Source of the DNA: a virus
Taxonomy: Duplodnaviria; Heunggongvirae; Uroviricota; Caudoviricetes
Virus record (IMG/VR): IMGVR_UViG_2585427728_000004
Reading direction: 5' to 3' (one strand)
DNA length: 11,946 nt
The position numbers and the translations under genes were made by a program. Of the stretch, positions 1,931 to 11,946 are shown piece by piece; the first letter of the stretch is position 1, and each line of letters starts with the position of its first letter. The notes below the pieces were generated by a model. It made no database searches and was not told the origin of the DNA. It saw only the letters and a program-made list of their open reading frames with translations.

Positions 1931-3339
1931 GGCAACTTCCGACTCCGGTAGCTGGCCGGATCAATTCGCTGGCTCTCCCCGTCGCTGTCACCGCGCAATG
2001 ACTGCGTGATGTTGTAACGATCAATAATCCAGCGTTCGCCACGGCTGCCATAGCCCGTTACCTGAACCACAAAACGGCGATGACGTCCCGCCTGCACATC
2101 CACTGTCGCCACAAGGAAATTAACGCCATCCGGCACACTGCGGGAAGGAACTGGCTCTGCCCGCTGCTCAAGCAATTCACTTTTTCGTTGCTCCATGCTG
2201 GCGCGGGGAAGATAAGGTAATCCCCAGTCGGTATTGATAACCGTCTTGAGTGTCTCTTCACTTCCGGTTGTCTCGTATTCCTGTTCTGCAGTAAGCAGCT
2301 TGTAAACGAGTTGCGAGAGTGTCTGATAAGCAGCTGCCGGACCCTCCATCCAGAATGACGCAATACGTGAACGCCGGGGATCACCATAACGACTGCCATC
2401 TGCATTGATGGATTCACCATCCCGTAACCAGACCCCACGTCCGTTCAGCTCGCGTTTTTGTTCAGGCAAAATCCGTCCTGAACAGGAAGGACACTGAATA
2501 TAAGCCGCCTCACTTGCCAGCACAGGATCGGCAATATCACGGAAACCAGCAACCACATCGCCGCAGGGCTGAAAATACTCACCACAGTGTGGACAGGGCC
2601 AGTACCAGCGACGGCGATCGCCACGGTTATAGAGCGACAGGATCCCCGTGGTTGGTGGAGCCTCATGCGGTGAAGTCCGTCGCCATTTCACATCCTTCAC
2701 ATCCCTGCCGGGGGAACTCTCCACCAGCGTCATACCACTGGACATAAATGTGGTGGTACGTTTTGAGGCAAGAGAGAAGGCATCCCCCTCACCATCAATA
2801 TCTTCCGGAAAACGGTCATAATCCGTCAGCGCCACGCATTTATAATCTGATGAAGACATGATATTGACTGACGGCCAGCCGATTTTCAGGTAGTTGCCAG
2901 CAAGGAATGTTCTGTCATAAACGTTGTTGTCATTTTTGTTCGGACTCAGGCGACTGACCACTTCCGGGCTGACGCGAAACGTTCTGGCGAGTCGTTTTTT
3001 GGAGTGTTCGCGGGCTTTTTCCTCCGTCATCTGAATGATCAGCATATCAGCAGGATCGCAAATCACGTTGTAAATCACCCAGCCGTCAATCAGGCCGATA
3101 GTCTTGCCGGTTCGTGCCGGGCCAACAAATATCACTGCGTCGTATTCACGCGAGGCCAGGCAGTTCATAGGCTCAATAACATACGGTGCCACCAGCGGAT
3201 CCCACGGGACTGAGTTCCCTGCCCCCATGGGCACCCGCATATACTGAGCAACGGCATCAGCAACCCGCATTCGTCTCGGTGCGCGAAGGATATAACCTGA
3301 ATCGGTTCGTGCTGCCTTTGCGGTTTCCTGATTCAGCAT
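1855..3339 (-). CDS. Phage terminase large subunit (lambda GpA family), C-terminally truncated and fused into tail-fiber DNA; probably non-functional
   Basis: 494-aa ORF with Walker-A-like GPARTGKT, the CPHCGE motif and a WIIDRYNI segment matching the lambda gpA nuclease-domain region. Lambda gpA is about 640 aa; homology ends near residue 465 and the frame then runs through tail-fiber sequence to a stop. The start ATG overlaps the upstream stop (TAATG). Confidence 0.75.
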
Positions 3340-3833
3340 TACTCCTCCTGCTGTAATTCCTCCTCATCATCCGCACCTGCTTCAGTCACCCGCAGGGCTA
3401 TCTGATCGCGCAGATCATCAATAATGGACTGAACACGGCTCACAGCGTCAGGCTGCAGACCGCAGTCACGTTCAAGAATATCCGGTAATGTCTCCAGCAC
3501 CTGCACGACCGCTTTTGCCCAGATGGCAAACTCCCGTCTGACATCACTGGCCGGAATGAGTTGTGCCGTTTCCTGTTCGAACTTAAGACGCTCACGTTCA
3601 GACTGATACCAGGCTTTGCGCTCATGCGCGTCCATTTCGCCTTCTGCAACCGGCGGTGGTAATGCCAGAAATGCCGACACAATATCAACCACCCGATAAA
3701 GCTTGAGGTTGCTTTCATGCCCCCCTGCAACGGGTAGATTTTGCAGCCTTGCCGCAGCAGTCTGGCGATGTACACCTGACAATGCCGCCAGTTGACTGAT
3801 ATTCAGCGTCAGATTTTTTAACTCTCGATCCAT
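3339..3833 (-). CDS. nohA: Terminase small subunit / DNA-packaging protein (Nu1/NohA-like)
   Basis: 164-aa ORF directly upstream of and overlapping the terminase large subunit gene; N-terminal HTH-like LNISQLAALSGVHRQTAAARL and an acidic C-terminus; a cos-like sequence lies ~190 bp upstream, as in lambda. Confidence 0.75.
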   Translation of the reverse strand: MDRELKNLTLNISQLAALSGVHRQTAAARLQNLPVAGGHESNLKLYRVVDIVSAFLALPPPVAEGEMDAHERKAWYQSERERLKFEQETAQLIPASDVRREFAIWAKAVVQVLETLPDILERDCGLQPDAVSRVQSIIDDLRDQIALRVTEAGADDEEELQQEE

Positions 3834-3989
3834 ACCCGCTCCAGAATGTTTTAAACATGCATCTTGCGAACAACTTTAGGCAAACGGTGTTAGTGATGAA
3901 CAAAAAACAATCAGAATCGACACCATAAAAATAAAACAACTGTAATATCAATCAATTACAGTAGTGGTGATGACGAATAAAATTTCAAA

Positions 3990-4045
3990 AACTAGCCTTT
4001 TTCCGCGACGCTCCCGCCCCGTGGCAGGGACCCCCACTGGGAGGA
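3990..4045. other. cos (cohesive-end) site of lambdoid prophage; cosN-like 12-mer at 4008..4019, read on the minus strand as GGGCGGGAGCGT
   Basis: Minus-strand sequence TCGGGTCCTCCCAGTGGGGGTCCCTGCCACG|GGGCGGGAGCGTCGCGGAAAAAGGCTAGTTTTTGAAATTTT resembles the remembered lambda ends (right end ...ACGGGTCCTTTCCGGTGATCCGACAGGTTACG, left end GGGCGGCGACCTCGCGGGTTTTCGCTATTTATGAAAATTTTCC). Distance to the terminase small subunit start (~190 bp) matches lambda cosN to Nu1. Confidence 0.55.
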
Positions 4046-4385
4046 CCCGACAGCCTGACAACCGTGACGAGCATCTGAAACAGAGCTTTACATAATGGCA
4101 TGGGGATAATTCAGAAGGACATCACAGCATGCCCACACAAATTAGTGTGAGTGTCCTGTTTCTTACTACGCGCAGGACTGACGAGCATGAGGGGAAAATA
4201 CGCGAACCGAAATGCCTTATCTTCAGAAATGCAGCCGGCATCCGAACTGGACGATATTGTAAATTCACCTAAATACGAGGCATTGCTGTAGTTGAATTGC
4301 AGTACTGTATTAGCCTTACAGTGACAGAATACGATATTGACTCTGTCACTTGTGAAATGGTCAGAATGGTTAGCAGTTATGGTGA

Positions 4386-4592
4386 TCAGTCAACCACCAG
4401 GGAATAATCCTTCGTATTCTTATCGTGCTTTACTAACGCGGCCTCAATTGCCCTGAATGCTTCCAGAGATACTTGATGTTCTATACATGCAATTACAACA
4501 TCCGGGTAACCCATCGAAATGGTGCTATTAAGCATAGTTTTTACACGAACCTGCTCCTGGGACGGGGCATCAGTGTATTGATCTTTATGCAT
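4386..4592 (-). CDS. Small prophage protein of unknown function (YbcW/YnfO-like, 68 aa)
   Basis: 68-aa ORF with GGAG Shine-Dalgarno ~8 nt upstream of the ATG; size and position (between the packaging genes and the lysis region) match the small DLP12/Qin ORFs of this type. Confidence 0.5.
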
Positions 4593-4794
4593 TTTGTCGC
4601 TCCATTCGTTTGCTCTTCACTTGCGGCTAAAAATATAACGTCAAATCACTCAGCATGAAAGAGTGAAAGTTTCAGCGCGTTTCCCTTACATAATCTGTCG
4701 TTTGTATTCTCTTCAGGCATACCGGAAAGACTAGGTATTGTCACACAACCAATACCATCGACAATCGAGATTTATATCTATTCGGTAATGTTTA

Positions 4795-4825
4795 AATATA
4801 ACAAAACCCCGTAAAAACGAGGTTT
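4795..4825 (-). terminator. Candidate intrinsic terminator downstream of gnsB
   Basis: Minus-strand RNA AAACCUCG-UUUUUA-CGGGGUUU (8-bp stem including one G-U pair) followed by a U-rich run; found by eye, not energy-scored. Confidence 0.35.
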
Positions 4826-4887
4826 ATGGGTAATTTGTATTGTTGAATAGCATCTGATGAGAAATTGATGCTAATACTATAAACATG

Positions 4888-5061
4888 CTAGATTAAATCA
4901 ATCTTGATATCATAGCTTTCAAGACCAGTCATTTTTTCCCGTGCAGTAAACTGGATACTGGTAACTTCTTTCCCGGTCTTTTTCTTAAGCTCAATGATTT
5001 TTTTTGTTATATATTCAGAAATATCTGCTTCTGTTTTTGTTTTTAACTCTTCAATGTTCAT
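4888..5061 (-). CDS. gnsB: GnsA/GnsB family protein (57 aa)
   Basis: MNIEELKTKTEADISEYITKKIIELKKKTGKEVTSIQFTAREKMTGLESYDIKIDLI closely matches the GnsA/GnsB family. AGAGGA Shine-Dalgarno precedes two adjacent ATGs (5064 and 5061); the ORF-track N-terminal extension to 5154 is probably not translated. Confidence 0.8.
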   Translation of the reverse strand: MNIEELKTKTEADISEYITKKIIELKKKTGKEVTSIQFTAREKMTGLESYDIKIDLI

Positions 5062-5233
5062 CATTTCCTCTTTTAGTCTGTTATGACTGTCCTGGTACAC
5101 AGTAGTGTCAATTATATGGAGCAAACGTATAAAAGATAAGATGAAACATCGCAATAATCAACATACGACGGTCTAAATTTCACACAAACAGATAAAGATG
5201 ATTATCATTTATTATCAATGCATTAGAATCAAA

Positions 5234-5389
5234 TCAATTCAAGAGTCTCATTGCTGCTTCCAGAATTTCTTCTGAAGTTACATGTCGATCCGCTGCTACA
5301 TAAATGACTTTATGATCTCCGGTCAGAGATGGAAACCCTGCAGCCATTACAGTGAGGTGTGTTGTTTCGCCATTTGGATATTCACGCAT
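5234..5389 (-). CDS. ynfN: Qin-prophage-type small protein YnfN-like (51 aa from MREYPNG; upstream in-frame starts at 5410 and 5464 also possible)
   Basis: ORF 5234..5503; the 51-aa version starting at MREYPNGETTHL has GGAG upstream and matches the length I remember for K-12 YnfN. A terminator-like hairpin at 5507..5530 argues against the longest start. Confidence 0.55.
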   Translation of the reverse strand: MREYPNGETTHLTVMAAGFPSLTGDHKVIYVAADRHVTSEEILEAAMRLLN

Positions 5390-5506
5390 GATGGTGTTAA
5401 CTCCGGTCATCACTGGCACTACCATTGCTGGTTCAGAGTTAAAAAAAACTATTATTTTTTTCATAATGTTACCGTAATATGTGAGTATCCATCGACTAGA
5501 CACTAA

Positions 5507-5530
5507 GCAAAAAAGCTCCCGAAGGAGCCT
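5507..5530 (-). terminator. Candidate intrinsic terminator downstream of cspI (GC stem with UUCG tetraloop and U6 tract on the minus strand)
   Basis: Plus strand aaaaaaGCTCCcgaaGGAGCcttcatttt; on the minus strand GGCUCC-UUCG-GGAGCU is followed by UUUUUU. A U-rich run also follows on the plus strand, so it may be bidirectional. Confidence 0.4.
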
Positions 5531-5735
5531 TCATTTTCACTTTCTTAAATCTAACGACAGATGGCTAACATTTAAGTATTGTGAAATATTATCAAATGTA
5601 ATCATCATTGATTTACAAAAGATACATTTTGCCCCGAAAGGATTTCTGTCAGAAACATCAAAAGATGATGTTCTATACTGAGAACCATGGCAACACGGGC
5701 ATCTAAAGTGAATATGGTTTGTAATATTTTCTACC

Positions 5736-5948
5736 TCAAAGTGCCACTACATGAACAGCTGCAGGGCCTTTAGGTCCGTTCTCAATACCAAATTCGACTT
5801 CCTGATTCTCAGTTAACGTTTTGAAATCGTTGCTCTGAATAGCTGAGAAATGCACAAACACATCTTTGCTACCATCTTTCGGCGTGATGAAACCAAAACC
5901 TTTTTCAGGGTTAAACCATTTCACTAAACCAGTCATTTTGTTAGACAT
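5736..5948 (-). CDS. cspI: Cold shock protein CspA family (70 aa), CspI-like
   Basis: [70 protein letters not shown] carries the RNP1/RNP2 motifs (KGFGFI, VFVHF) of cold shock proteins; AAGG Shine-Dalgarno and a long AT-rich leader lie upstream. Confidence 0.9.
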
Positions 5949-6311
5949 CATTATTACCTTTTGAAGAAGTTAGCCCTTGGGCAGAATGGTCCGAAAAAAA
6001 ATATCAGAAAGAAAAACCAACAAGGAAATCTCAAGAGGTACAAATAATAAAATTATAACAATGACTGCTTCAGATAATTTTGTAACAAACCAGAACACCA
6101 TTAACGCATGATTAACCAACCATAGCAAGGATTACTTTTGTAAAGAAAAACACACGAATGAAACAATAGCTTTATTTATTAATAAAACGTGTCATTCTGT
6201 CTAATGACCTTTTATCTTACCCTTAAGATTTCAAGGATTTTGACTCATGGAAGAGTCCTTTTTATTTAAATTTCACATTCAGCGCTAAAAATAATCCGAT
6301 TTAATATTAAT

Positions 6312-7334
<1,023 letters not shown>

Positions 7335-7338
<4 letters not shown>

Positions 7339-7646
7339 AGATATTTATGATGAGGACGCTCGTGCTTATTGGCAGGATTTTCAATCTTAAAGGAGTACTG
7401 ATGCTGCAGATAAGACTCAACTTTTTCTGACAATTTTTCTGCTACTTCCAGGAAGACTTGCCGGACGCTCATTCTGGCTGCTGCCTCATAAAACTCCAGC
7501 ACAGCTCCTTCAACACGGTCCATGGCGACATCCAGGCCAAAAATTTCACCGTCAAAGCGTTCTTTGTCCTGTAAGGCTACAGTTACCGTAACTTTATTCT
7601 CAAAATTACGGACTCCTTTCACAACCAGTTCATAGTCTTGAGTCAT
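7335..7646 (-). CDS. ydfR: YdfR-like protein (DUF1327), unknown function, embedded in the lysis cassette
   Basis: 103-aa ORF with strong GAGGAGAG Shine-Dalgarno, start 4 nt after the holin stop; its stop overlaps the endolysin ATG (ATGA). Confidence 0.75.
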
Positions 7647-7650
7647 TGGA

Positions 7651-7866
7651 TTACTCTCCTCTCGCAGCCTTACGCCTGTCTTCTTTAATCTTGAAATAAA
7701 GATTTGTCAGATACGTCAGCATGCCAAATACCAGACTACCCAATACACCTATTGCCGCCCACTGTGAGGGCGTGACTTTATCGAGCAACTGTAAAAACCA
7801 GTAGCCAGCACTGCCTGCAGAGGTGCTGTAGGCGATGCCCGTTGTTAACTTATCCATGGATTTCAT
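7651..7866 (-). CDS. essQ: Pinholin, phage 21 S21-like class II holin with dual-start motif (71 aa)
   Basis: [71 protein letters not shown] has two transmembrane segments and a charged C-terminus; GGAGGTGA Shine-Dalgarno upstream. The ORF-track extension to 7950 is read-through. Confidence 0.85.
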
Positions 7867-7954
7867 AGCCTCACCTCCGCAGATAACGGATGGTGTACAC
7901 GGTTTGGTTCGAAGAAGGAAAGAAGTTACATTAGCGTAAGGCCCGAACATCTAT

Positions 7955-7987
7955 TCAAAAAGAAAAACGCCAGCAATTATTCTGGCG
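7955..7987 (-). terminator. Candidate intrinsic terminator between the AraC-family gene and the holin
   Basis: Plus strand aaaaaCGCCAGcaattattCTGGCG; on the minus strand CGCCAG-aauaauug-CUGGCG is followed by UUUUUCUUUUU. Confidence 0.45.
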
Positions 7988-8056
7988 TAGCTAAAAATAT
8001 CGTATAATCTTACACTTCAAAAAATAACTTTATAAAATACCATCACATCATATCTT

Positions 8057-8770
8057 CTAAGAAAATCTTGATAAATATTGGTGCGGAGGCACACCAAAAT
8101 ATCCTCTAAAAACACTTACAAAATATGATGCATTGTCATACCCGCATATTCCCGCCACCTTGCCGACAGTATGGTTACTGTAGATCAATAATCTTTGCGC
8201 CATCATCATTCGTTCTTCAAGAATTAATTTACTAAACGATAATCCTTCGTCTTTTAATTTTCTTTTTAACAAACTCTCGCTCATATATAATCTTGAAGAT
8301 ATATCACAAAGTCTCCATGACGCAGAGATATCCGAGTGAATAATAGCCTTAACTTTACAACCTAAGCTATTAAGACTTCCGAACAAAAAACTTTGCACTA
8401 TTTTCTCTGAAGATAAGACAGCAAGACATGCAAGTGATATTTGATTTCTAACTACATCCACGGTTTTGCTATCACAATTCAAGCATGCAACCAAGTTCTT
8501 TAACAATGAAAAATCTTCACATTCTACTATCAAGTATGACGGATAAAACCTTCTTACAGAAAAAGGTGAGAGTGTGTAGTTTTTAAAGAAATCATTAACT
8601 GTTTTCTCCTCAACATCTACGATCATTAGATGATCTGTATTTGACGAAAAAAGATCTTTTAAATTGTATTCAATGAGGACAGCATTTCCTTTTTTAAACA
8701 AAATATCTTCTTTACCAATTCGGACACCAAACGAGTTCAACACCAAAATGATAGAACATATGTATGGCAT
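8057..8770 (-). CDS. AraC/XylS-family transcriptional regulator (AppY/Rns-like size class, 237 aa from the ATG at 8770)
   Basis: C-terminal double HTH typical of AraC family (LLKRKLKDEGLSFSKLILEERMMMAQRLL...VGKVAGICGYDNASYFVSVFRGYFGVPPHQY). AGGTGG Shine-Dalgarno 5 nt before the ATG at 8770; the ORF-track start at 8779 is GTG. The gene and its ~400-bp upstream region are visibly AT-rich. Confidence 0.85.
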   Translation of the reverse strand: MPYICSIILVLNSFGVRIGKEDILFKKGNAVLIEYNLKDLFSSNTDHLMIVDVEEKTVNDFFKNYTLSPFSVRRFYPSYLIVECEDFSLLKNLVACLNCDSKTVDVVRNQISLACLAVLSSEKIVQSFLFGSLNSLGCKVKAIIHSDISASWRLCDISSRLYMSESLLKRKLKDEGLSFSKLILEERMMMAQRLLIYSNHTVGKVAGICGYDNASYFVSVFRGYFGVPPHQYLSRFS

Positions 8771-9176
8771 ATTATCCACCTGATATCATTGGGGTTACAC
8801 CAGGTAAGTATAGGTGGAAAATCAATATTCGCCAGTTCAACAATAAGGAAAATCTCATTGCATCACAACTATAAAACCATGTGTTTAACTCACAAAAAAC
8901 AAATCATTAAACTAATCTGTTATATTATAATAGCTGCGTGCAATAATAATATTATATGCTCTTAATATTCACTTGAAATATCTTCATATAAAAACAGATT
9001 GAATAAAATCTTTTGGGGCTGGTATGTTTACCAACATTAAATTGCATCTCAATGTTTTCTTTAGCGTGAACAGGATTTTTATAAAAACTGACACTATGAG
9101 CATCATAGCGTAGTTTTTACGATTGTAAATATCCTGCATACAGGAACTCATCACTTTCAGATGATATCGCATACAG
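8771..9176 (-). promoter_or_regulatory. AT-rich leader/promoter region of the AraC-family gene; candidate nucleoid-protein (H-NS-type) silencing target
   Basis: About 400 bp of very AT-rich non-coding DNA between two minus-strand genes. The only ORF here (8984..9172) is low-complexity with no ribosome-binding site. No specific promoter hexamers assigned. Confidence 0.3.
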
Positions 9177-10136
9177 TTAATTCACCATCAGTCTTAGAGC
9201 CAGTTCTTCCGGATAGGGATCGAAGTAGTTCTGTGTAAGCAAGTAATCATTAGGATACTCACCCAGATAATGCTTCAGCAGAGTCAACGGCGCAAGAAGA
9301 GGCAATGTGCCAAAGCGATAGTTAAGTATAACCTCGCTCAACTCTTTACGCTGGCGTGTACTTAAGTAATTACTAAAATACCCCTGTATATGCATCAGCA
9401 CATTCGTGTGATTTTTACGTGATGCTGGTTTTCTGAGAATCGCCATCAGATTATCACGATACACCTCAAAGTATGATTCAAGGTCCGCCCACTCGTGTAT
9501 TGCAGCCACAAATGGTCCCATATCTTTATAGCCTGCCTGGCTATGCGCCAACAACTGAAGCTTATAACGACTATGAAAAGCTAATAACTCTCTTCTTGAT
9601 AATTTCTCCTTGTAAAGGTGATTGAGCTCATGCAAAGCAAAAACTCTTTCAATAAAATTCTCACGAAGCACTGGATCATGTAATCGCCCATCCTCTTCAA
9701 CCGGTAGCCAGGAAAACTTTTCCATCAAAGTGCTCGTAAATAGTCCCACTCCATCTTTACGACCTCGATTACCATTTTCATCATAGACACGCACGCGCTC
9801 CATGCCACAGCTGGGAGATTTAGCACAAACCACAAACCCCGATACATCCTTTAATTTGTCCATATAAGAACGACTAAACTCTGTCATTCTCTCTGTCACA
9901 TCCTCATTCTGGTCGTGGCTGAAACACATCCGTATATTTCCTTGCTTCGAGCGCACAAGTCGTAGAGCAGGACGCGGAACTGGCAGCCCTATAGCCATTT
10001 CCGGACATACTGGTCTGAATGTTACCCATTCCACTAATTTGTCCATTAAAAAGTCATCTCTTTTGTGACCACCATCAAAACGAACAGCAGAACCGCCCAA
10101 ACAACCGCTGATCCCAATCACAGGTTTTTTTATCAT
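9177..10136 (-). CDS. DUF523/DUF1722 fusion protein (TudS-like putative [4Fe-4S] thionucleobase desulfidase with YbgA-like domain)
   Basis: N-terminal MIKKPVIGISGCLGGSAVRFDGGHKRD with three spaced cysteines (GISGC, PVCPE, SPSCG) as in DUF523/TudS; the C-terminal half resembles DUF1722 (YbgA). Strong GGGGGAGGAA Shine-Dalgarno 4 nt upstream of the ATG. Confidence 0.8.
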   Translation of the reverse strand: MIKKPVIGISGCLGGSAVRFDGGHKRDDFLMDKLVEWVTFRPVCPEMAIGLPVPRPALRLVRSKQGNIRMCFSHDQNEDVTERMTEFSRSYMDKLKDVSGFVVCAKSPSCGMERVRVYDENGNRGRKDGVGLFTSTLMEKFSWLPVEEDGRLHDPVLRENFIERVFALHELNHLYKEKLSRRELLAFHSRYKLQLLAHSQAGYKDMGPFVAAIHEWADLESYFEVYRDNLMAILRKPASRKNHTNVLMHIQGYFSNYLSTRQRKELSEVILNYRFGTLPLLAPLTLLKHYLGEYPNDYLLTQNYFDPYPEELALRLMVN

Positions 10137-10328
10137 TTCCTCCCCCTTGACTAATTCATTAACACATAAACTTTGTAGTGCACGGACTAAATTGCCTTTC
10201 TGGCTTCATCACTGACAATTTTTCTGTTATTGACTATTCCTAATATAGTAGGAAAGTTCTTTAAGTGATCGGTCGTACTCATCTATCTTTCATACTTACT
10301 CTCAACTATCAAAAGTACAGGATTTATT
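10137..10328. promoter_or_regulatory. Divergent intergenic region between the DUF523/DUF1722 gene and the lipocalin gene; presumed to hold both promoters
   Basis: 192-bp gap between divergently oriented starts; contains TTGACT- and TATAGT-like hexamers but no confident -35/-10 pairing by eye. Confidence 0.3.
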
Positions 10329-10853
10329 ATGAAGTTATGGCCTGTGTTGACTGGCATTGCACTCTCTTTCACTCTTATAGCATGTAAGGCCCCGACACCA
10401 CCTAAAGGTGTGCAGCCGATTACAAATTTTGACGCCAACCGCTACCTCGGAAAATGGTATGAAATAGCTCGCCTCGAGAACTGGTTCGAACGTGGTCTGG
10501 AACAGGTCAGCGCTACTTATGAAAAACGGAACGACGGAGGGATTCGCGTACTTAACCGTGGATACGATCCAACGAAAAACAAATGGAGCGAGAGCGAAGG
10601 TAAAGCATACTTTACTGGAGATACTAAAACTGCAGCGTTGAAAGTTTCGTTTTTTGGCCCCTTCTATGGTGGCTATAATGTAATCAAACTGGATGATGAG
10701 TATAAGTATGCTCTTGTCAGTGGTCCGAACAGAGAATACCTATGGATTCTGGCAAGGACCCAAACTATTCCAGATAATGTAAAAGCAGACTATGTGCGTA
10801 CCGCTCAAAAGTTGGGATTCAATGTCAATGAACTATTATGGGTTAAACAATAA
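10329..10853 (+). CDS. Bacterial lipocalin Blc-like outer-membrane lipoprotein (174 aa)
   Basis: Signal peptide with LIAC lipobox (MKLWPVLTGIALSFTLIAC), then Blc motifs NFDANRYLGKWYEIARLENWFERGLEQVSATY and GKAYFTGDTKTAALKVSFFGPFYGGYNVIKLD...YLWILARTQ. AGGA Shine-Dalgarno upstream. Only plus-strand gene in the window. Confidence 0.85.
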   Translation: MKLWPVLTGIALSFTLIACKAPTPPKGVQPITNFDANRYLGKWYEIARLENWFERGLEQVSATYEKRNDGGIRVLNRGYDPTKNKWSESEGKAYFTGDTKTAALKVSFFGPFYGGYNVIKLDDEYKYALVSGPNREYLWILARTQTIPDNVKADYVRTAQKLGFNVNELLWVKQ

Positions 10854-10881
10854 AATCCCCACCCGAAATGATACTTATTAG

Positions 10882-10908
10882 AAAAAAACCAGCCTTTGGG
10901 GAGGCTGG
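10882..10908 (-). terminator. Intrinsic terminator ~100 nt downstream of the Q gene (tR'-like candidate)
   Basis: Plus strand gaaaaaaaCCAGCCTttggggAGGCTGG; on the minus strand a 7-bp GC-rich stem with 6-nt loop is followed by UUUUUUUU. No T-run follows on the plus strand, so it is unidirectional. Confidence 0.5.
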
Positions 10909-11008
10909 CTAAATCAGGAAACAAGCTGTTATATGATAATAACTACGTTGCGATTCCAACATTTAAAATGTTAGACTAATGAAAATCAGACAGCAACTTT
11001 TCCTTTAA

Positions 11009-11386
11009 TTATTTCGAACAATCAGCATCCATCTCCAATCGGAGATCCAACACCATCAGCATGCCCTCCACTACGCCCTCAGCTTTCTGGAGCATCCTGC
11101 CAACCCAACAATCAGATCGCCCATGCTTACGTGCAAGCGCCATAAAAGTCATGCCGCCGACATAATAGTCCACCAATAAATCATGTAAATCGCTGTTGTT
11201 TTTTTTCAGGCGAGCCATACATTCACAAATGATCATCGCGTCATCGTCACAGCATTGCGGACGAGATCTTACTTTTGAAGGAATTAATCCCTTAAAACCG
11301 GCGGCAATGGACGACCAGGTCACATCTTCATGATTATTAGCCGCCCATGCCCCCCAACGCTCAAGAACCATCTGAATATCACGCAT
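11009..11386 (-). CDS. Late-gene antitermination protein Q (short QuuD/phage-82-type, ~125 aa)
   Basis: [24 protein letters not shown]...[18 protein letters not shown]... matches the short Q antiterminator family with its cysteine cluster; GGAG Shine-Dalgarno 9 nt before the ATG at 11386. The ORF-track start at 11401 is TTG. Confidence 0.75.
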
Positions 11387-11403
11387 CAACTTACTCCACA
11401 AAA

Positions 11404-11946
11404 TTAGGCCAGCACACCAATTGCCAGCGCGCGATCGATAAATCGAAAAATCAGCTCCAGTTGGGAGCCATACTTCTCTTCAAATGCCACGGTATCCGTA
11501 TGCAACTCGTCGTGATGCTTTCTGCACAAAGGCAAAACAAAGAGATCATGTGCTTTGGTTCCCATTCCGCCCTGCCCGTGACCAATCAGATGATGCGGAT
11601 CGTCGGCTGGCATACCATATCGGTGAATAACGGTTTCGCTGTGATGATAATCGCCGTGTGGCCACTGGCAGGATTTAATATGGCGCAACAGCCAGTCAGA
11701 CAATGCACCAGCACCACCAGCAGCACGAATTACCCGTGCGTTACTGAAAAACGGCAGCAATGTTTTGTCTTCCACCAGCGGCTGGCGAACGGCAGGAACG
11801 ACCCCGGACGGCAGATTACGCATGCTTTTCGGTTCCGGCTCCACCAGTACCCGGGTATTGTGGAATACCGGCATGGATTCACGGCCCGGCTTAACGACCA
11901 CCAGCCCGAGTTCCGGTACCAGAACAGGTCGAAGTAATACCCGCAC
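11404..11946 (-). CDS. DUF968-family prophage protein (YdfU-like), C-terminal ~180 aa; gene continues beyond the window end
   Basis: ORF runs off the window edge; contains the HNH/zinc-like motif [28 protein letters not shown] and sits immediately upstream of Q as ydfU does in Qin. Confidence 0.6.

Follow-up and report, generated by a model that had tools for sequence, protein, structure and literature searches.

What does a transcriptional regulator bring to a lysogen, or to the phage itself, when its gene occupies the most AT-rich kilobase of a prophage? This question is raised by positions 8057..9176 of the window, i.e., the whole stretch of 11,946 nucleotides analyzed here. The initial annotation had read in this interval an AT-rich AraC-family gene of about 240 codons, preceded by a long leader, whose product could control the adjacent genes or act in trans on the chromosome. 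A literature search, by context and by RefSeq accession, retrieved no paper on this protein. On balance, we moderately favor the view that the regulator, of the AraC/XylS family, is a functional "moron" product that contributes to lysogenic conversion by acting in trans on host acid-fitness genes.

The gene itself is delimited by the following features:

8057..8770, minus strand: coding sequence of the araC-family regulator, 237 aa (open reading frame, Pfam, 100% nucleotide match in strain H2)
8776..8781, minus strand: Shine-Dalgarno sequence AGGTGG, 5 nt ahead of the ATG at 8770 (sequence)

[quoted passage not shown] The ORF finder had called the interval 8057..8779 (minus strand) with a GTG at 8779 as start codon. 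The ATG at 8770 is the likely true start, since it is preceded by the Shine-Dalgarno sequence, within which the GTG falls, and since the same start is used in RefSeq for the 100%-identical strain H2. Moreover, AGGTGGAT..TATG was found in 76/76 related loci. Careful re-translation, proposed initially as a check for frameshifts or premature stops, revealed none inside the reading frame. At the extreme 3' end of the gene, a 1-nt deletion in a T run shortens the product by 6 aa compared with the sister alleles, the loss being located beyond the DNA-binding domain. Residues 1-134 form a Rns/ToxT-like regulatory domain and residues 135-233 a double helix-turn-helix DNA-binding domain, the C-terminal module of about 100 residues typical of the family. 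Two Pfam models match above their curated cut-offs: HTH_18 (E 3e-16, residues 161-237, 59.9 bits for a cut-off of 33.6) and HTH_AraC (E 6e-11, 42.6 bits for a cut-off of 26.6). With 237 residues, two helix-turn-helix models and a prophage context, the proposal of an intact AraC-family regulator on a mobile element thus proved right.

Regarding this context, the host element is a Qin-type lambdoid prophage of E. coli, and the regulator lies in the cargo slot that separates antiterminator Q from holin, co-directional with the late operon:

11009..11386, minus strand: late-gene antiterminator Q (Pfam Phage_antitermQ, E 8e-51; RefSeq strain H2)
10887..10910, minus strand: terminator downstream of Q (terminator scan; -14.9 kcal/mol, z -3.9)
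10329..10853, plus strand: gene of a Blc-like outer-membrane lipocalin (Pfam Lipocalin_2; NCBIfam Blc)
10137..10328, no strand: divergent rudS/blc control region (96% mean column identity across alleles)
9177..10136, minus strand: RudS-type gene, a fusion of a TudS/DUF523 desulfidase with DUF1722 (Pfam PF04463 and PF08349)
7651..7866, minus strand: class II holin, EssD-like (Pfam Phage_holin_2_1; RefSeq strain H2), the first lysis gene downstream of the cargo

The order Q, Blc (on the opposite strand), RudS, AraC, holin was found in 71/80 IMG/VR loci. In other elements, the same slot harbors cspB, cspF and ynfU (K-12 Qin), nmpC (DLP12) or stx2 (a Stx2k phage). The gene is thus inserted between conserved phage genes at a site that varies among related phages and, with 33% GC against 47% for Q and the lysis genes, it has the foreign base composition of a moron. 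The terminator downstream of Q is located where tR' of the late promoter region would be expected, and would also terminate blc on the opposite strand.

Both neighbors named in the initial annotation, a DUF523/DUF1722 gene and a lipocalin gene, were recovered by Pfam. The RudS-type gene is annotated as "YbgA family"; DUF523 is a 2-thiouracil desulfurase domain, and the protein is a homologue of the phage tRNA 4-thiouridine desulfidase RudS_vir. Overexpression of the phage 1H12 homologue, gp66, lowered the s4U content of tRNA (PMC11417400), and the window rudS shares 91.5% nucleotide identity with the gene of this homologue, via the L004 allele. The lipocalin, whose gene is antisense to phage late transcription, reaches 312.6 bits with the NCBIfam Blc subfamily model, for which the cut-off is 267. 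A role in anti-phage defense was considered and rejected, PADLOC giving no match for any of the three cargo proteins; in PHROGs, all three fall under unknown function.

The closest characterized relative of the regulator is PatE, an AraC-like protein that activates acid resistance and is encoded by a prophage of E. coli O157:H7 EDL933 (Z0321, O-island 8). The two proteins are 48% identical over their full length without gaps (66% in the DNA-binding domain), and both are AT-rich prophage cargo. Homology extends to the start regions of the genes, with -35 hexamers TTGGCA in PatE and CTGGCG in the window, a common -10 TATACTT and a common ribosome site GGTGGAT..ATATG. However, the PatE gene adjoins tail-fibre/pin genes (pinE) and an IS fragment, outside the Q-holin slot. 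With 48% identity and a different genomic position, orthology to PatE was rejected and, by these comparisons, the window regulator is a paralogue or belongs to a sister clade of PatE.

More distant are PsrA and PsrB (Z1789 and Z2104, O157:H7 prophages), AraC-like regulators which, as the window gene, are cargo located downstream of Q in lambdoid prophages. PsrA is 38% identical to the window protein overall and 55% in the DNA-binding domain; its gene is followed by tRNA genes (Sakai Sp4) and that of a Stx2k-phage homologue by tRNAs and stx2, whereas the window gene is followed by the holin gene. According to a review, PsrA and PsrB raise GadE expression, leading to repression of type III secretion, and are linked with effector loci and Pch regulators; PatE and PsrB both act at the hdeA promoter, to which PsrB binds, as it does to that of gadE (PMC10877973). 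AppY, from the DLP12 prophage of K-12, is a prophage AraC-like regulator of similar size that shares an N-terminal M..VCSV with the window protein. However, it is only 30% identical, its gene follows the DLP12 tail-fibre genes and it also controls the hya and app operons. AppY is reported to bind the gadE and gadY promoters and to raise gadE expression and acid survival (PMC10057817).

Chromosomal GadW, GadX and YdeO belong to the same branch of the family, with 29-33% identity. Indeed, BLASTP alignments span residues 1 to ~235 for PatE, PsrA, GadW (33%), AppY and YdeO (29%), the NCBIfam YdeO model aligns with residues 1-231, and the solved DNA-binding domain of GadX is the best PDB sequence match. 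Scores are nevertheless far under the equivalog cut-offs (YdeO, 112.3 bits for 348; GadX, 90 bits for 500), and the protein is therefore not an orthologue of GadW, GadX or YdeO. Full-length homology to proteins of about 240-275 aa, together with the N-terminal motif M..[VI]CS[VI]I, places it in a GadW/YdeO/AppY/PatE/Psr subgroup. The family placement first suggested (AppY, Rns, PerA or GadX type) is accordingly partly retained: identity points to this branch, of which only some members had been named, and the fold is Rns-like.

The AlphaFold2 model of the regulator (pLDDT 87.5) displays the two-domain architecture of Rns and ToxT. Foldseek gave Rns, CsvR and ToxT as top full-length matches (246-260 columns, E 4e-11 to 3e-7), and the model superposes on the DNA-binding domains of GadX (TM 0.85-0.88, rmsd 1.2-1.5 Å), MarA and AraC. 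Although the window protein shares with these fatty-acid-responsive virulence regulators (Rns, CsvR, ToxT) a beta-rich N-terminal domain and a double helix-turn-helix, identity to them is only 19-21%. In Rns, R75 holds the fatty-acid carboxylate, and the basic residues concerned are H20 and R75 in Rns and K31 and K230 in ToxT. In a low-confidence HMM alignment to CsvR, D52 of the window protein is opposite Rns R75, while H20 is unaligned. The first recognition helix is almost the same in both proteins, reading SESLLKRKLKDEG in the window protein and SESLLKRKLKEEG in PatE. As the second one is 62% identical to that of PatE, DNA specificity could differ, and the N-terminal domain being only 34% identical, so may the input signal. 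All 10 close homologues in the alignment keep K169. Counting residues from the offset of the BLASTP match suggests it as the counterpart of K170, a lysine of AppY in contact with DNA, and the K170E substitution abolishes DNA binding by AppY (PMC10057817).

The locus also stands out by its base composition. GC content is 33.5% in the coding sequence, 31.0% in the upstream 406 bp (8771..9176) and 32.6% over 8057..9176, to be compared with a mean of 44.7% for the window, 47% for Q and the lysis genes and 52% for the left third of the window; the E. coli genome is at about 50-51%. The lowest-GC 1120-bp stretch of the 11.9-kb window begins at 7971 and is thus essentially the same interval, in agreement with the AT-richness first noted for the gene and the ~400 bp ahead of it. 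At this value over 1120 bp, the locus is AT-rich relative to the host genome, as expected of acquired loci silenced by H-NS, and silencing is plausible judging from composition. The 10-bp high-affinity H-NS motif TCGATAAATT is not enriched (15 matches for 17.4 expected), with one match, carrying 2 mismatches, within the interval.

Around the gene, four elements deserve attention:

8804..8835, minus strand: proximal promoter-like element, -35 CTGGCG, 17-nt spacer, -10 TATACT (allele conservation)
8901..8939, minus strand: 39-nt near-copy of the post-Q sequence at 10911..10948 (local alignment)
9102..9129 (region 9080..9129), minus strand: distal conserved block TTTACA-16-TATGAT (promoter scan, 10/12)
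7967..7988, minus strand: intrinsic terminator immediately following araC, ahead of the holin gene (terminator scan)

In the proximal element, the -35 lies at 8830..8835 and the -10 at 8807..8812, and transcription is predicted to start near 8800, leaving a 5' UTR of ~30 nt. The extended -10, CCTATACTTAC, agrees at 9/11 positions with the sigma-S consensus TCTATACTTAA (PMC3367168), while the -35 of the window allele is weak (3/6). Hexamers and spacing are kept in six alleles down to PatE (TTGGCA-18-TATACT) with a spacer of variable sequence, and the element is present in 75/76 loci. These conserved, consensus-like hexamers suggest that the gene has its own promoter-like element. On the downstream side, the terminator at 7967..7988 (-11.3 kcal/mol, z -2.9, followed by a U run) is kept in the 86%, 77% and 50% alleles.

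The distal block is invariant in 5 alleles with divergent flanks and was found in 72/76 loci. In the window allele it is overlapped by an 18-bp hairpin with a U run (9080..9120). The block could serve as a distal promoter of araC, as a terminator of the upstream gene, or as both; as a real promoter it could give a leader of ~325 nt. A plain terminator is not favored, the hairpin being strong in the window allele only (-17.5 kcal/mol, z -7, versus -9.4 and -5.5 kcal/mol in other alleles) and the sequence of its 5' arm being invariant in all alleles. The best-conserved core promoter-like element being situated only ~30 nt before the ATG, the long leader proposed at first is not favored, and the 400-bp upstream stretch is more likely to be regulatory, or relic, intergenic DNA than a transcribed leader.

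Several other candidates were considered in this region. UCCACCU (8812..8818) can pair with AGGUGGA, and does so in the minimum-energy folds of two alleles. An RNA thermometer, or a hairpin masking the Shine-Dalgarno sequence, was nevertheless rejected: z is only -0.8 to -1.4, and the upstream arm, which is unconserved in PatE and in the alleles at 60% and 50%, lies across the spacer and -10 of the conserved promoter-like element. The small ORF at 8984..9172 (62 aa) is probably non-coding, as its start, frame and length vary between alleles (62, 57 and 32 aa) and no convincing ribosome site precedes it. Scanning with Rfam gave nothing near araC, the sole match being a cspA thermoregulator at 5690..6095.

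Is the gene then simply a silent passenger, a xenogeneically silenced remnant in a degraded prophage? The window prophage is decaying, with a frameshifted lysozyme gene, a 504-bp internal deletion in ydfU and a truncated large terminase gene. The AT-rich DNA, the weak -35, the loss of the last 6 codons and IS insertions inside the regulator gene in some genomes are consistent with this reading. However, the open reading frame is full length in 78/80 IMG/VR loci and dN/dS is 0.15-0.26 overall (0.12 in the DNA-binding domain). With a dN/dS of ~0.2, the gene is maintained: it is under purifying selection. In addition, alleles are retained in the viable phages 1H12, Lambda_ev and IdasGreatGrand, and the promoter-like element and the terminator are conserved. 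A silent remnant is thus improbable, and a functional regulator remains our preferred reading.

Control of the neighboring genes was the first of the two actions initially envisaged. AraC-family regulators often control neighboring genes, and the three cargo genes could form one stress module in which the regulator governs rudS and blc through their divergent control region. Linkage argues for such a module, since among alleles of at least 76% identity the full order is kept in the 71/80 loci cited above and the 3-kb cassette is covered to at least 80% in 889 genomes. Moreover, the rudS-blc control region is more conserved, at 96%, than the adjacent coding sequences. However, neither rudS nor blc accompanies the relatives at 60%, 50%, 48% and 38% identity, so that linkage appears to reflect the recent common ancestry of a single module. 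The araC gene is mosaic and diverges faster than its neighbors (89.7% identity between the window and the L003 allele, versus 98.3% for rudS), which argues against a regulator co-evolving with a fixed operator. It is also located downstream of rudS in the same direction, not divergently. When the araC upstream and rudS-blc regions and the control regions of hdeA-hdeD and gadE in K-12 were compared by local alignment, the best scores all fell within the range of shuffled sequences, so that the araC upstream and rudS-blc regions share no sequence beyond chance. With distant relatives lacking these genes and no shared element, local control is not favored and, as a whole, it appears rather unlikely; action in trans on the chromosome appears the better-supported of the two, by analogy with AppY, PatE, PsrA and PsrB.

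The regulator might also serve the phage after induction or infection, by reprogramming the host during lytic growth or by acting on late or lysis timing. It is indeed co-directional with Q-dependent late transcription, from Q to holin, in every allele examined, and a copy of post-Q sequence is located upstream of araC. This 39-nt copy (alignment score 41, versus a maximum of 31 in 500 shuffles) contains TATAAT and ATATAACAG, the latter being also present after DLP12 quuD. However, the copy is missing from the L004 allele and from that of the viable phage 1H12, and it is probably left over from a former junction between Q and araC. In relatives at 60% and 50% identity, the gene immediately follows a Q of another type. 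A promoter-like element and a terminator of its own are the classic layout of prophage-expressed cargo, the relatives studied are active in uninduced lysogens, and PatE-type members lie outside the late operon, beside tail genes. A primarily lytic role therefore seems doubtful. Very unlikely, in our opinion, is a broader stress-conversion module, in which the AraC protein, with its divergent N-terminal domain as sensor of a signal, would co-ordinate RudS and lipocalin together with host acid-resistance genes. The post-Q copy, which may provide a further site of loading or pausing, would tie expression of the regulator to induction. If true, the phage would rewire the tRNA modification state of its host as well as its envelope and acid defenses.

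For lysogenic conversion in trans, the reading we favor, the following course can be proposed. In the lysogen, the regulator would be transcribed independently from the proximal promoter with its sigma-S-type -10, probably at a low level, mainly in stationary phase and against H-NS, which probably represses this AT-rich DNA. The protein would bind AT-rich promoters via its two helix-turn-helix motifs and activate host genes in trans. By analogy with PatE, PsrA/PsrB and AppY, its most likely targets would be gadE and hdeAB in the acid-fitness island, whose activation would increase acid resistance. After induction, Q-modified RNA polymerase would pass the terminators at 10887..10910 and 7967..7988, and the regulator would be co-transcribed with the lysis genes, as is stx in Stx phages.

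Elements of this kind are already well described, and it is plausible that the regulator is a fairly ordinary addition to the known prophage AraC regulators; the gain would be one more member with its regulon and not a new principle. Its interest lies in its distribution, the studied relatives being known mostly from O157:H7 and K-12. The exact protein was seen on at least 1000 contigs, and the cassette in 1153/5426 complete E. coli genomes. The regulator or a close allele is thus carried by about one in five of these genomes, many of them non-O157 and from humans, animals or the environment. Should it drive the GadE/HdeAB circuit too, a lambdoid phage that is common would modify acid tolerance, and possibly colonization, in a widespread and transferable way. 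The paper describing RudS states that E. coli is devoid of TudS or RudS homologues (PMC11417400); the RudS cassette is common in this species, and the regulator travels with this tRNA 4-thiouridine desulfidase. In GTDB, with one genome per species, the sole match above 52% identity was an E. coli-like contig in a contaminated MAG, a few Salmonella matches (44-52%) covered only ~100 residues of the DNA-binding domain, and full-length matches in other genera were at most 34% identical. The cassette was observed in non-O157 strains of varied host and environmental origin, one of them being an ETEC-type O6:H16.

With high confidence, the AraC-family gene on the minus strand of this stretch (araC, hereafter the regulator) is a functional cargo transcription factor. 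It lies in a degraded Qin-type lambdoid prophage of E. coli whose late genes are on the minus strand, in the order ydfU-like gene, Q, lipocalin gene (opposite strand), DUF523+DUF1722 gene, AraC-family gene, holin, ydfR, lysozyme and rzpQ along late transcription.

Features around the regulator
11009..11386, minus strand: antiterminator Q (Pfam Phage_antitermQ, E 8e-51)
10329..10853, plus strand, opposite to the late genes: lipocalin gene (blc)
9177..10136, minus strand: DUF523+DUF1722 gene (rudS)
9102..9129, minus strand: distal block TTTACA-16-TATGAT, 10/12 in a promoter scan
8807..8835, minus strand: proximal promoter-like element (CTGGCG, 17 nt, TATACT)
8057..8770, minus strand: AraC-family gene
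7967..7988, minus strand: terminator (hairpin and U run), directly past the araC stop codon
7651..7866, minus strand: holin

From 1944 to 11946, the window shares 99.9-100% nucleotide identity with strain H2 (NZ_CP028733.1), where the matching region is annotated with pinQ, gnsB, ynfN, cspI, rzpQ, rrrQ, ydfR, essD, ydfU, rem and hokD. The exception is a 504-bp deletion in the window, located in frame in the ydfU-like gene (about 11613..11616). In the rrrQ lysozyme (6806..7338), a homopolymer 1-nt deletion at about 7156 relative to H2 leaves two overlapping ORFs and is either a genuine frameshift or a sequencing error. Similarity to H2 stops at 1944, within a truncated large terminase gene fused onto a tail-fibre-like ORF. 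The window copy of the prophage is more degraded than the H2 copy.

An ORF finder called the regulator at 8057..8779 with a GTG start, a codon that falls within the Shine-Dalgarno sequence AGGTGG (8776..8781); in RefSeq, the identical H2 gene starts at the ATG at 8770, encoding 237 aa. The ORF, for which frameshifts or premature stops had been considered, has no internal stop. Its product is 6 aa shorter than those of sister alleles because one T is lost from a T run at the extreme 3' end, and this sole truncation falls past the DNA-binding domain. The initial annotation described both the gene and its upstream region as AT-rich, and base composition confirms it: GC content is 33.5% in the coding sequence, 31.0% in the 406-bp upstream region (8771..9176) and 32.6% over the entire 8057..9176, vs 44.7% for the window mean, 47% for Q and the lysis genes and 52% for the left third of the window, and the lowest-GC 1120-bp window of all 11.9 kb begins at 7971. 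A second low-GC island (4650..6310, 34.6% GC) surrounds an Rfam cspA thermoregulator match upstream of cspI (5690..6095, minus strand; 111 bits vs a gathering score of 78).

Assignment to the AraC family was right, both Pfam HTH_18 and HTH_AraC exceeding their cut-offs, but the nearest known relative is PatE and not the AppY, Rns, PerA or GadX proteins named at first.

Protein identity of the regulator to family members (overall; DNA-binding domain; N-terminal domain)
PatE (O157:H7, O-island 8): 48%, full length, no gaps; 66%; 34%
PsrA (Sakai ECs_1087, extended ORF): 38%; 55%; 24%
GadW: 33%; 46%; 25%
AppY: 30%; 39%; 22%
YdeO: 29%; 42%; 19%
GadX: alignment in the DNA-binding domain only; 40-41%; 15%

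The top NCBIfam model is YdeO (residues 1-231 aligned); since its score of 112 bits is below the cut-off of 348, the regulator is ruled out as a YdeO orthologue. These proteins have in common the N-terminal signature M..[VI]CS[VI]I, and recognition helix 1 (SESLLKRKLKDEG in the window regulator) is near-identical family-wide. Counting residues from the BLASTP offset places K169 at the position of AppY K170, whose change to E abolished DNA binding (PMC10057817). An AlphaFold2 model from 10 homologues (mean pLDDT 87.5) has Rns, CsvR and ToxT as closest full-length structural matches, and its DNA-binding domain fits that of GadX with a TM of 0.85-0.88. In a weak HMM alignment, D52 stands opposite R75 of Rns/CsvR, a residue reportedly involved in decanoate binding according to structural work on Rns; this speaks neither for nor against fatty-acid sensing by the regulator. 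As a side observation, the 195-aa CDS annotated for PsrA in Sakai (ECs_1087; L012, 23677..24390) seems N-terminally truncated, the ORF running upstream to an M-V-V-V-C-S-V-I start that matches the family signature. No study was found in the literature on the exact window protein.

Because its DNA-binding domain is 66% identical to that of PatE, the regulator is most likely a trans-acting activator. The acid-fitness island is the common target of the prophage-borne relatives studied so far: PatE and PsrB work at the hdeA promoter (PMC10877973), and gadE expression is raised by PsrA, PsrB and AppY (PMC10877973; PMC10057817). The regulator may likewise activate H-NS-repressed acid-fitness promoters of the host (hdeA, gadE), being expressed from the prophage chiefly in stationary phase; upon prophage induction, Q-modified polymerase would pass both terminators (10887..10910 and 7967..7988), and araC would be co-transcribed with the lysis genes. 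We give the specific acid-resistance targets about even chances, and consider the whole picture, a stationary-phase trans-activator with Q read-through on induction whose last steps we infer, somewhat probable. A role in the service of the phage after induction seems improbable.

The locus is organised like a classic phage cargo unit, with a distinct composition, its own terminator, a conserved promoter-like element and a slot receiving alternative cargo: in related phages, this slot is occupied by cspB/cspF (K-12 Qin), nmpC (DLP12) or, in an Stx2k phage with a PsrA-like gene as well, stx2. The terminator is kept even in an allele with 50% protein identity. The proximal promoter-like element occurs at 75 of the 76 loci. 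Six alleles, as far out as PatE (TTGGCA-18-TATACT), keep both hexamers and the distance between them, with a spacer of variable sequence. Its extended -10, CCTATACTTAC, agrees at 9 of 11 positions with the sigma-S consensus TCTATACTTAA (consensus from PMC3367168), a likeness that would fit the higher expression of patE and rpoS in stationary phase stated in a review (PMC10877973). This predicted promoter would yield a 5' UTR of ~30 nt, and the long leader initially proposed is putative; the AT-rich 400 bp upstream of araC are probably regulatory or relic DNA.

Further upstream, the distal block is invariant in five alleles with diverging flanks. In the window allele, it overlaps a perfect 18-bp hairpin with a U run (9080..9120, minus strand; -17.5 kcal/mol, z about -7), just past rudS. 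This hairpin is much weaker in other alleles, although the sequence of its 5' arm, TTTACAATCGTAAAAACT, is invariant across all alleles. The block could act as a distal promoter (leader ~325 nt), terminate rudS, or serve as a binding site/operator. The upstream region also contains, at 8901..8939, a 39-nt near-copy of the post-Q sequence 10911..10948 (minus strand), with an alignment score of 41, where 500 shuffles gave at most 31. This near-copy includes ATATAACAG, found as well after DLP12 quuD, and the allele of phage 1H12 lacks it; relatives that are 60% and 50% identical directly follow Q, with neither blc nor rudS. The near-copy is probably the relic of an older Q-araC module junction. 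Checks for an SD-masking hairpin, a small ORF upstream of araC, Rfam families, H-NS motif enrichment, defence-system models and operators in common with the hdeA or gadE regions gave weak or negative results.

Allele comparisons give the regulator a dN/dS of 0.15-0.26 overall, with 0.12 in its DNA-binding half and 0.3-0.5 in its N-terminal half; the neighbouring genes give 0.08-0.23 (near-identical allele pairs excluded). Compared with the ybhC-site allele (L003, 7010..7741), nucleotide identity is 94% in the N-terminal half and 84% in the C-terminal half, which points to a recombination breakpoint within the gene; for the adjacent rudS it reaches 98%. Given this low dN/dS and this mosaicism next to a conserved rudS, the regulator is kept by selection, yet swapped and diversified faster than its neighbours; that it would be a silent passenger is hard to credit. 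The same comparison bears on the proposal that it controls the adjacent rudS and blc, which we hold to be unlikely: araC evolves far faster than these genes, distant relatives do not have them as neighbours, and no sequence element in common was found. Of the two roles initially proposed, trans action on the chromosome is thus the more likely.

The neighbours themselves are predicted from sequence to encode a RudS-type tRNA 4-thiouridine desulfidase (DUF523+DUF1722) and a Blc-like lipocalin paralogue, which exceeds the NCBIfam Blc cut-off and runs antisense to phage late transcription. Via the allele compared with phage 1H12 (L004), rudS has 91.5% nucleotide identity to 1H12 gp66 (RudS_vir), which, once synthesised and expressed, lowered tRNA 4-thiouridine (PMC11417400). 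The divergent control region of rudS and blc (10137..10328) is 96% identical across alleles vs 92-95% for the coding sequences, which suggests regulatory constraint.

In contrast with the statement that E. coli has neither TudS nor RudS homologues (PMC11417400), the rudS-containing 3-kb cassette matches 1153 of 5426 complete E. coli genomes (889 with coverage of at least 80%). The regulator forms distinct allele groups, with at least 99% nucleotide identity in 330 genomes and 80-90% in 670, the majority near 89.5% and a smaller cluster near 82.5%. The 99% allele has the same location as in the window in the listed carriers; in examined carriers of the other two groups, different lambdoid prophages harbour it (one at the ybhC site, one an intact-looking iss/bor phage), in each case between Q and holin. 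Viable phages carry it too, namely Escherichia phage 1H12 and the Lambda_ev/Lambda_2 series (76.7% protein identity) and IdasGreatGrand (86.4%). Among 80 IMG/VR viral contigs (alleles of at least 85% identity), 78 have a full-length AraC ORF and 71 the full order Q, Blc (minus), RudS, AraC, holin; the others are without one or more upstream genes, for which a short upstream sequence accounts in several. With the exact window protein on at least 1000 contigs, all under generic names, the regulator adds a widespread member to the prophage-encoded AraC-like regulators already known. Its clade looks confined to Escherichia mobile elements in a scan of one genome per species, since identity above 52% outside Escherichia occurs solely in an E. 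coli-like contig of a contaminated MAG and full-length matches in other genera reach at most 34%. A 3.2-kb contig (JARKOR010000151.1) of a 'Candidatus Nanosynbacter' MAG carries an 85%-identical regulator allele; almost certainly, E. coli DNA has contaminated this bin.
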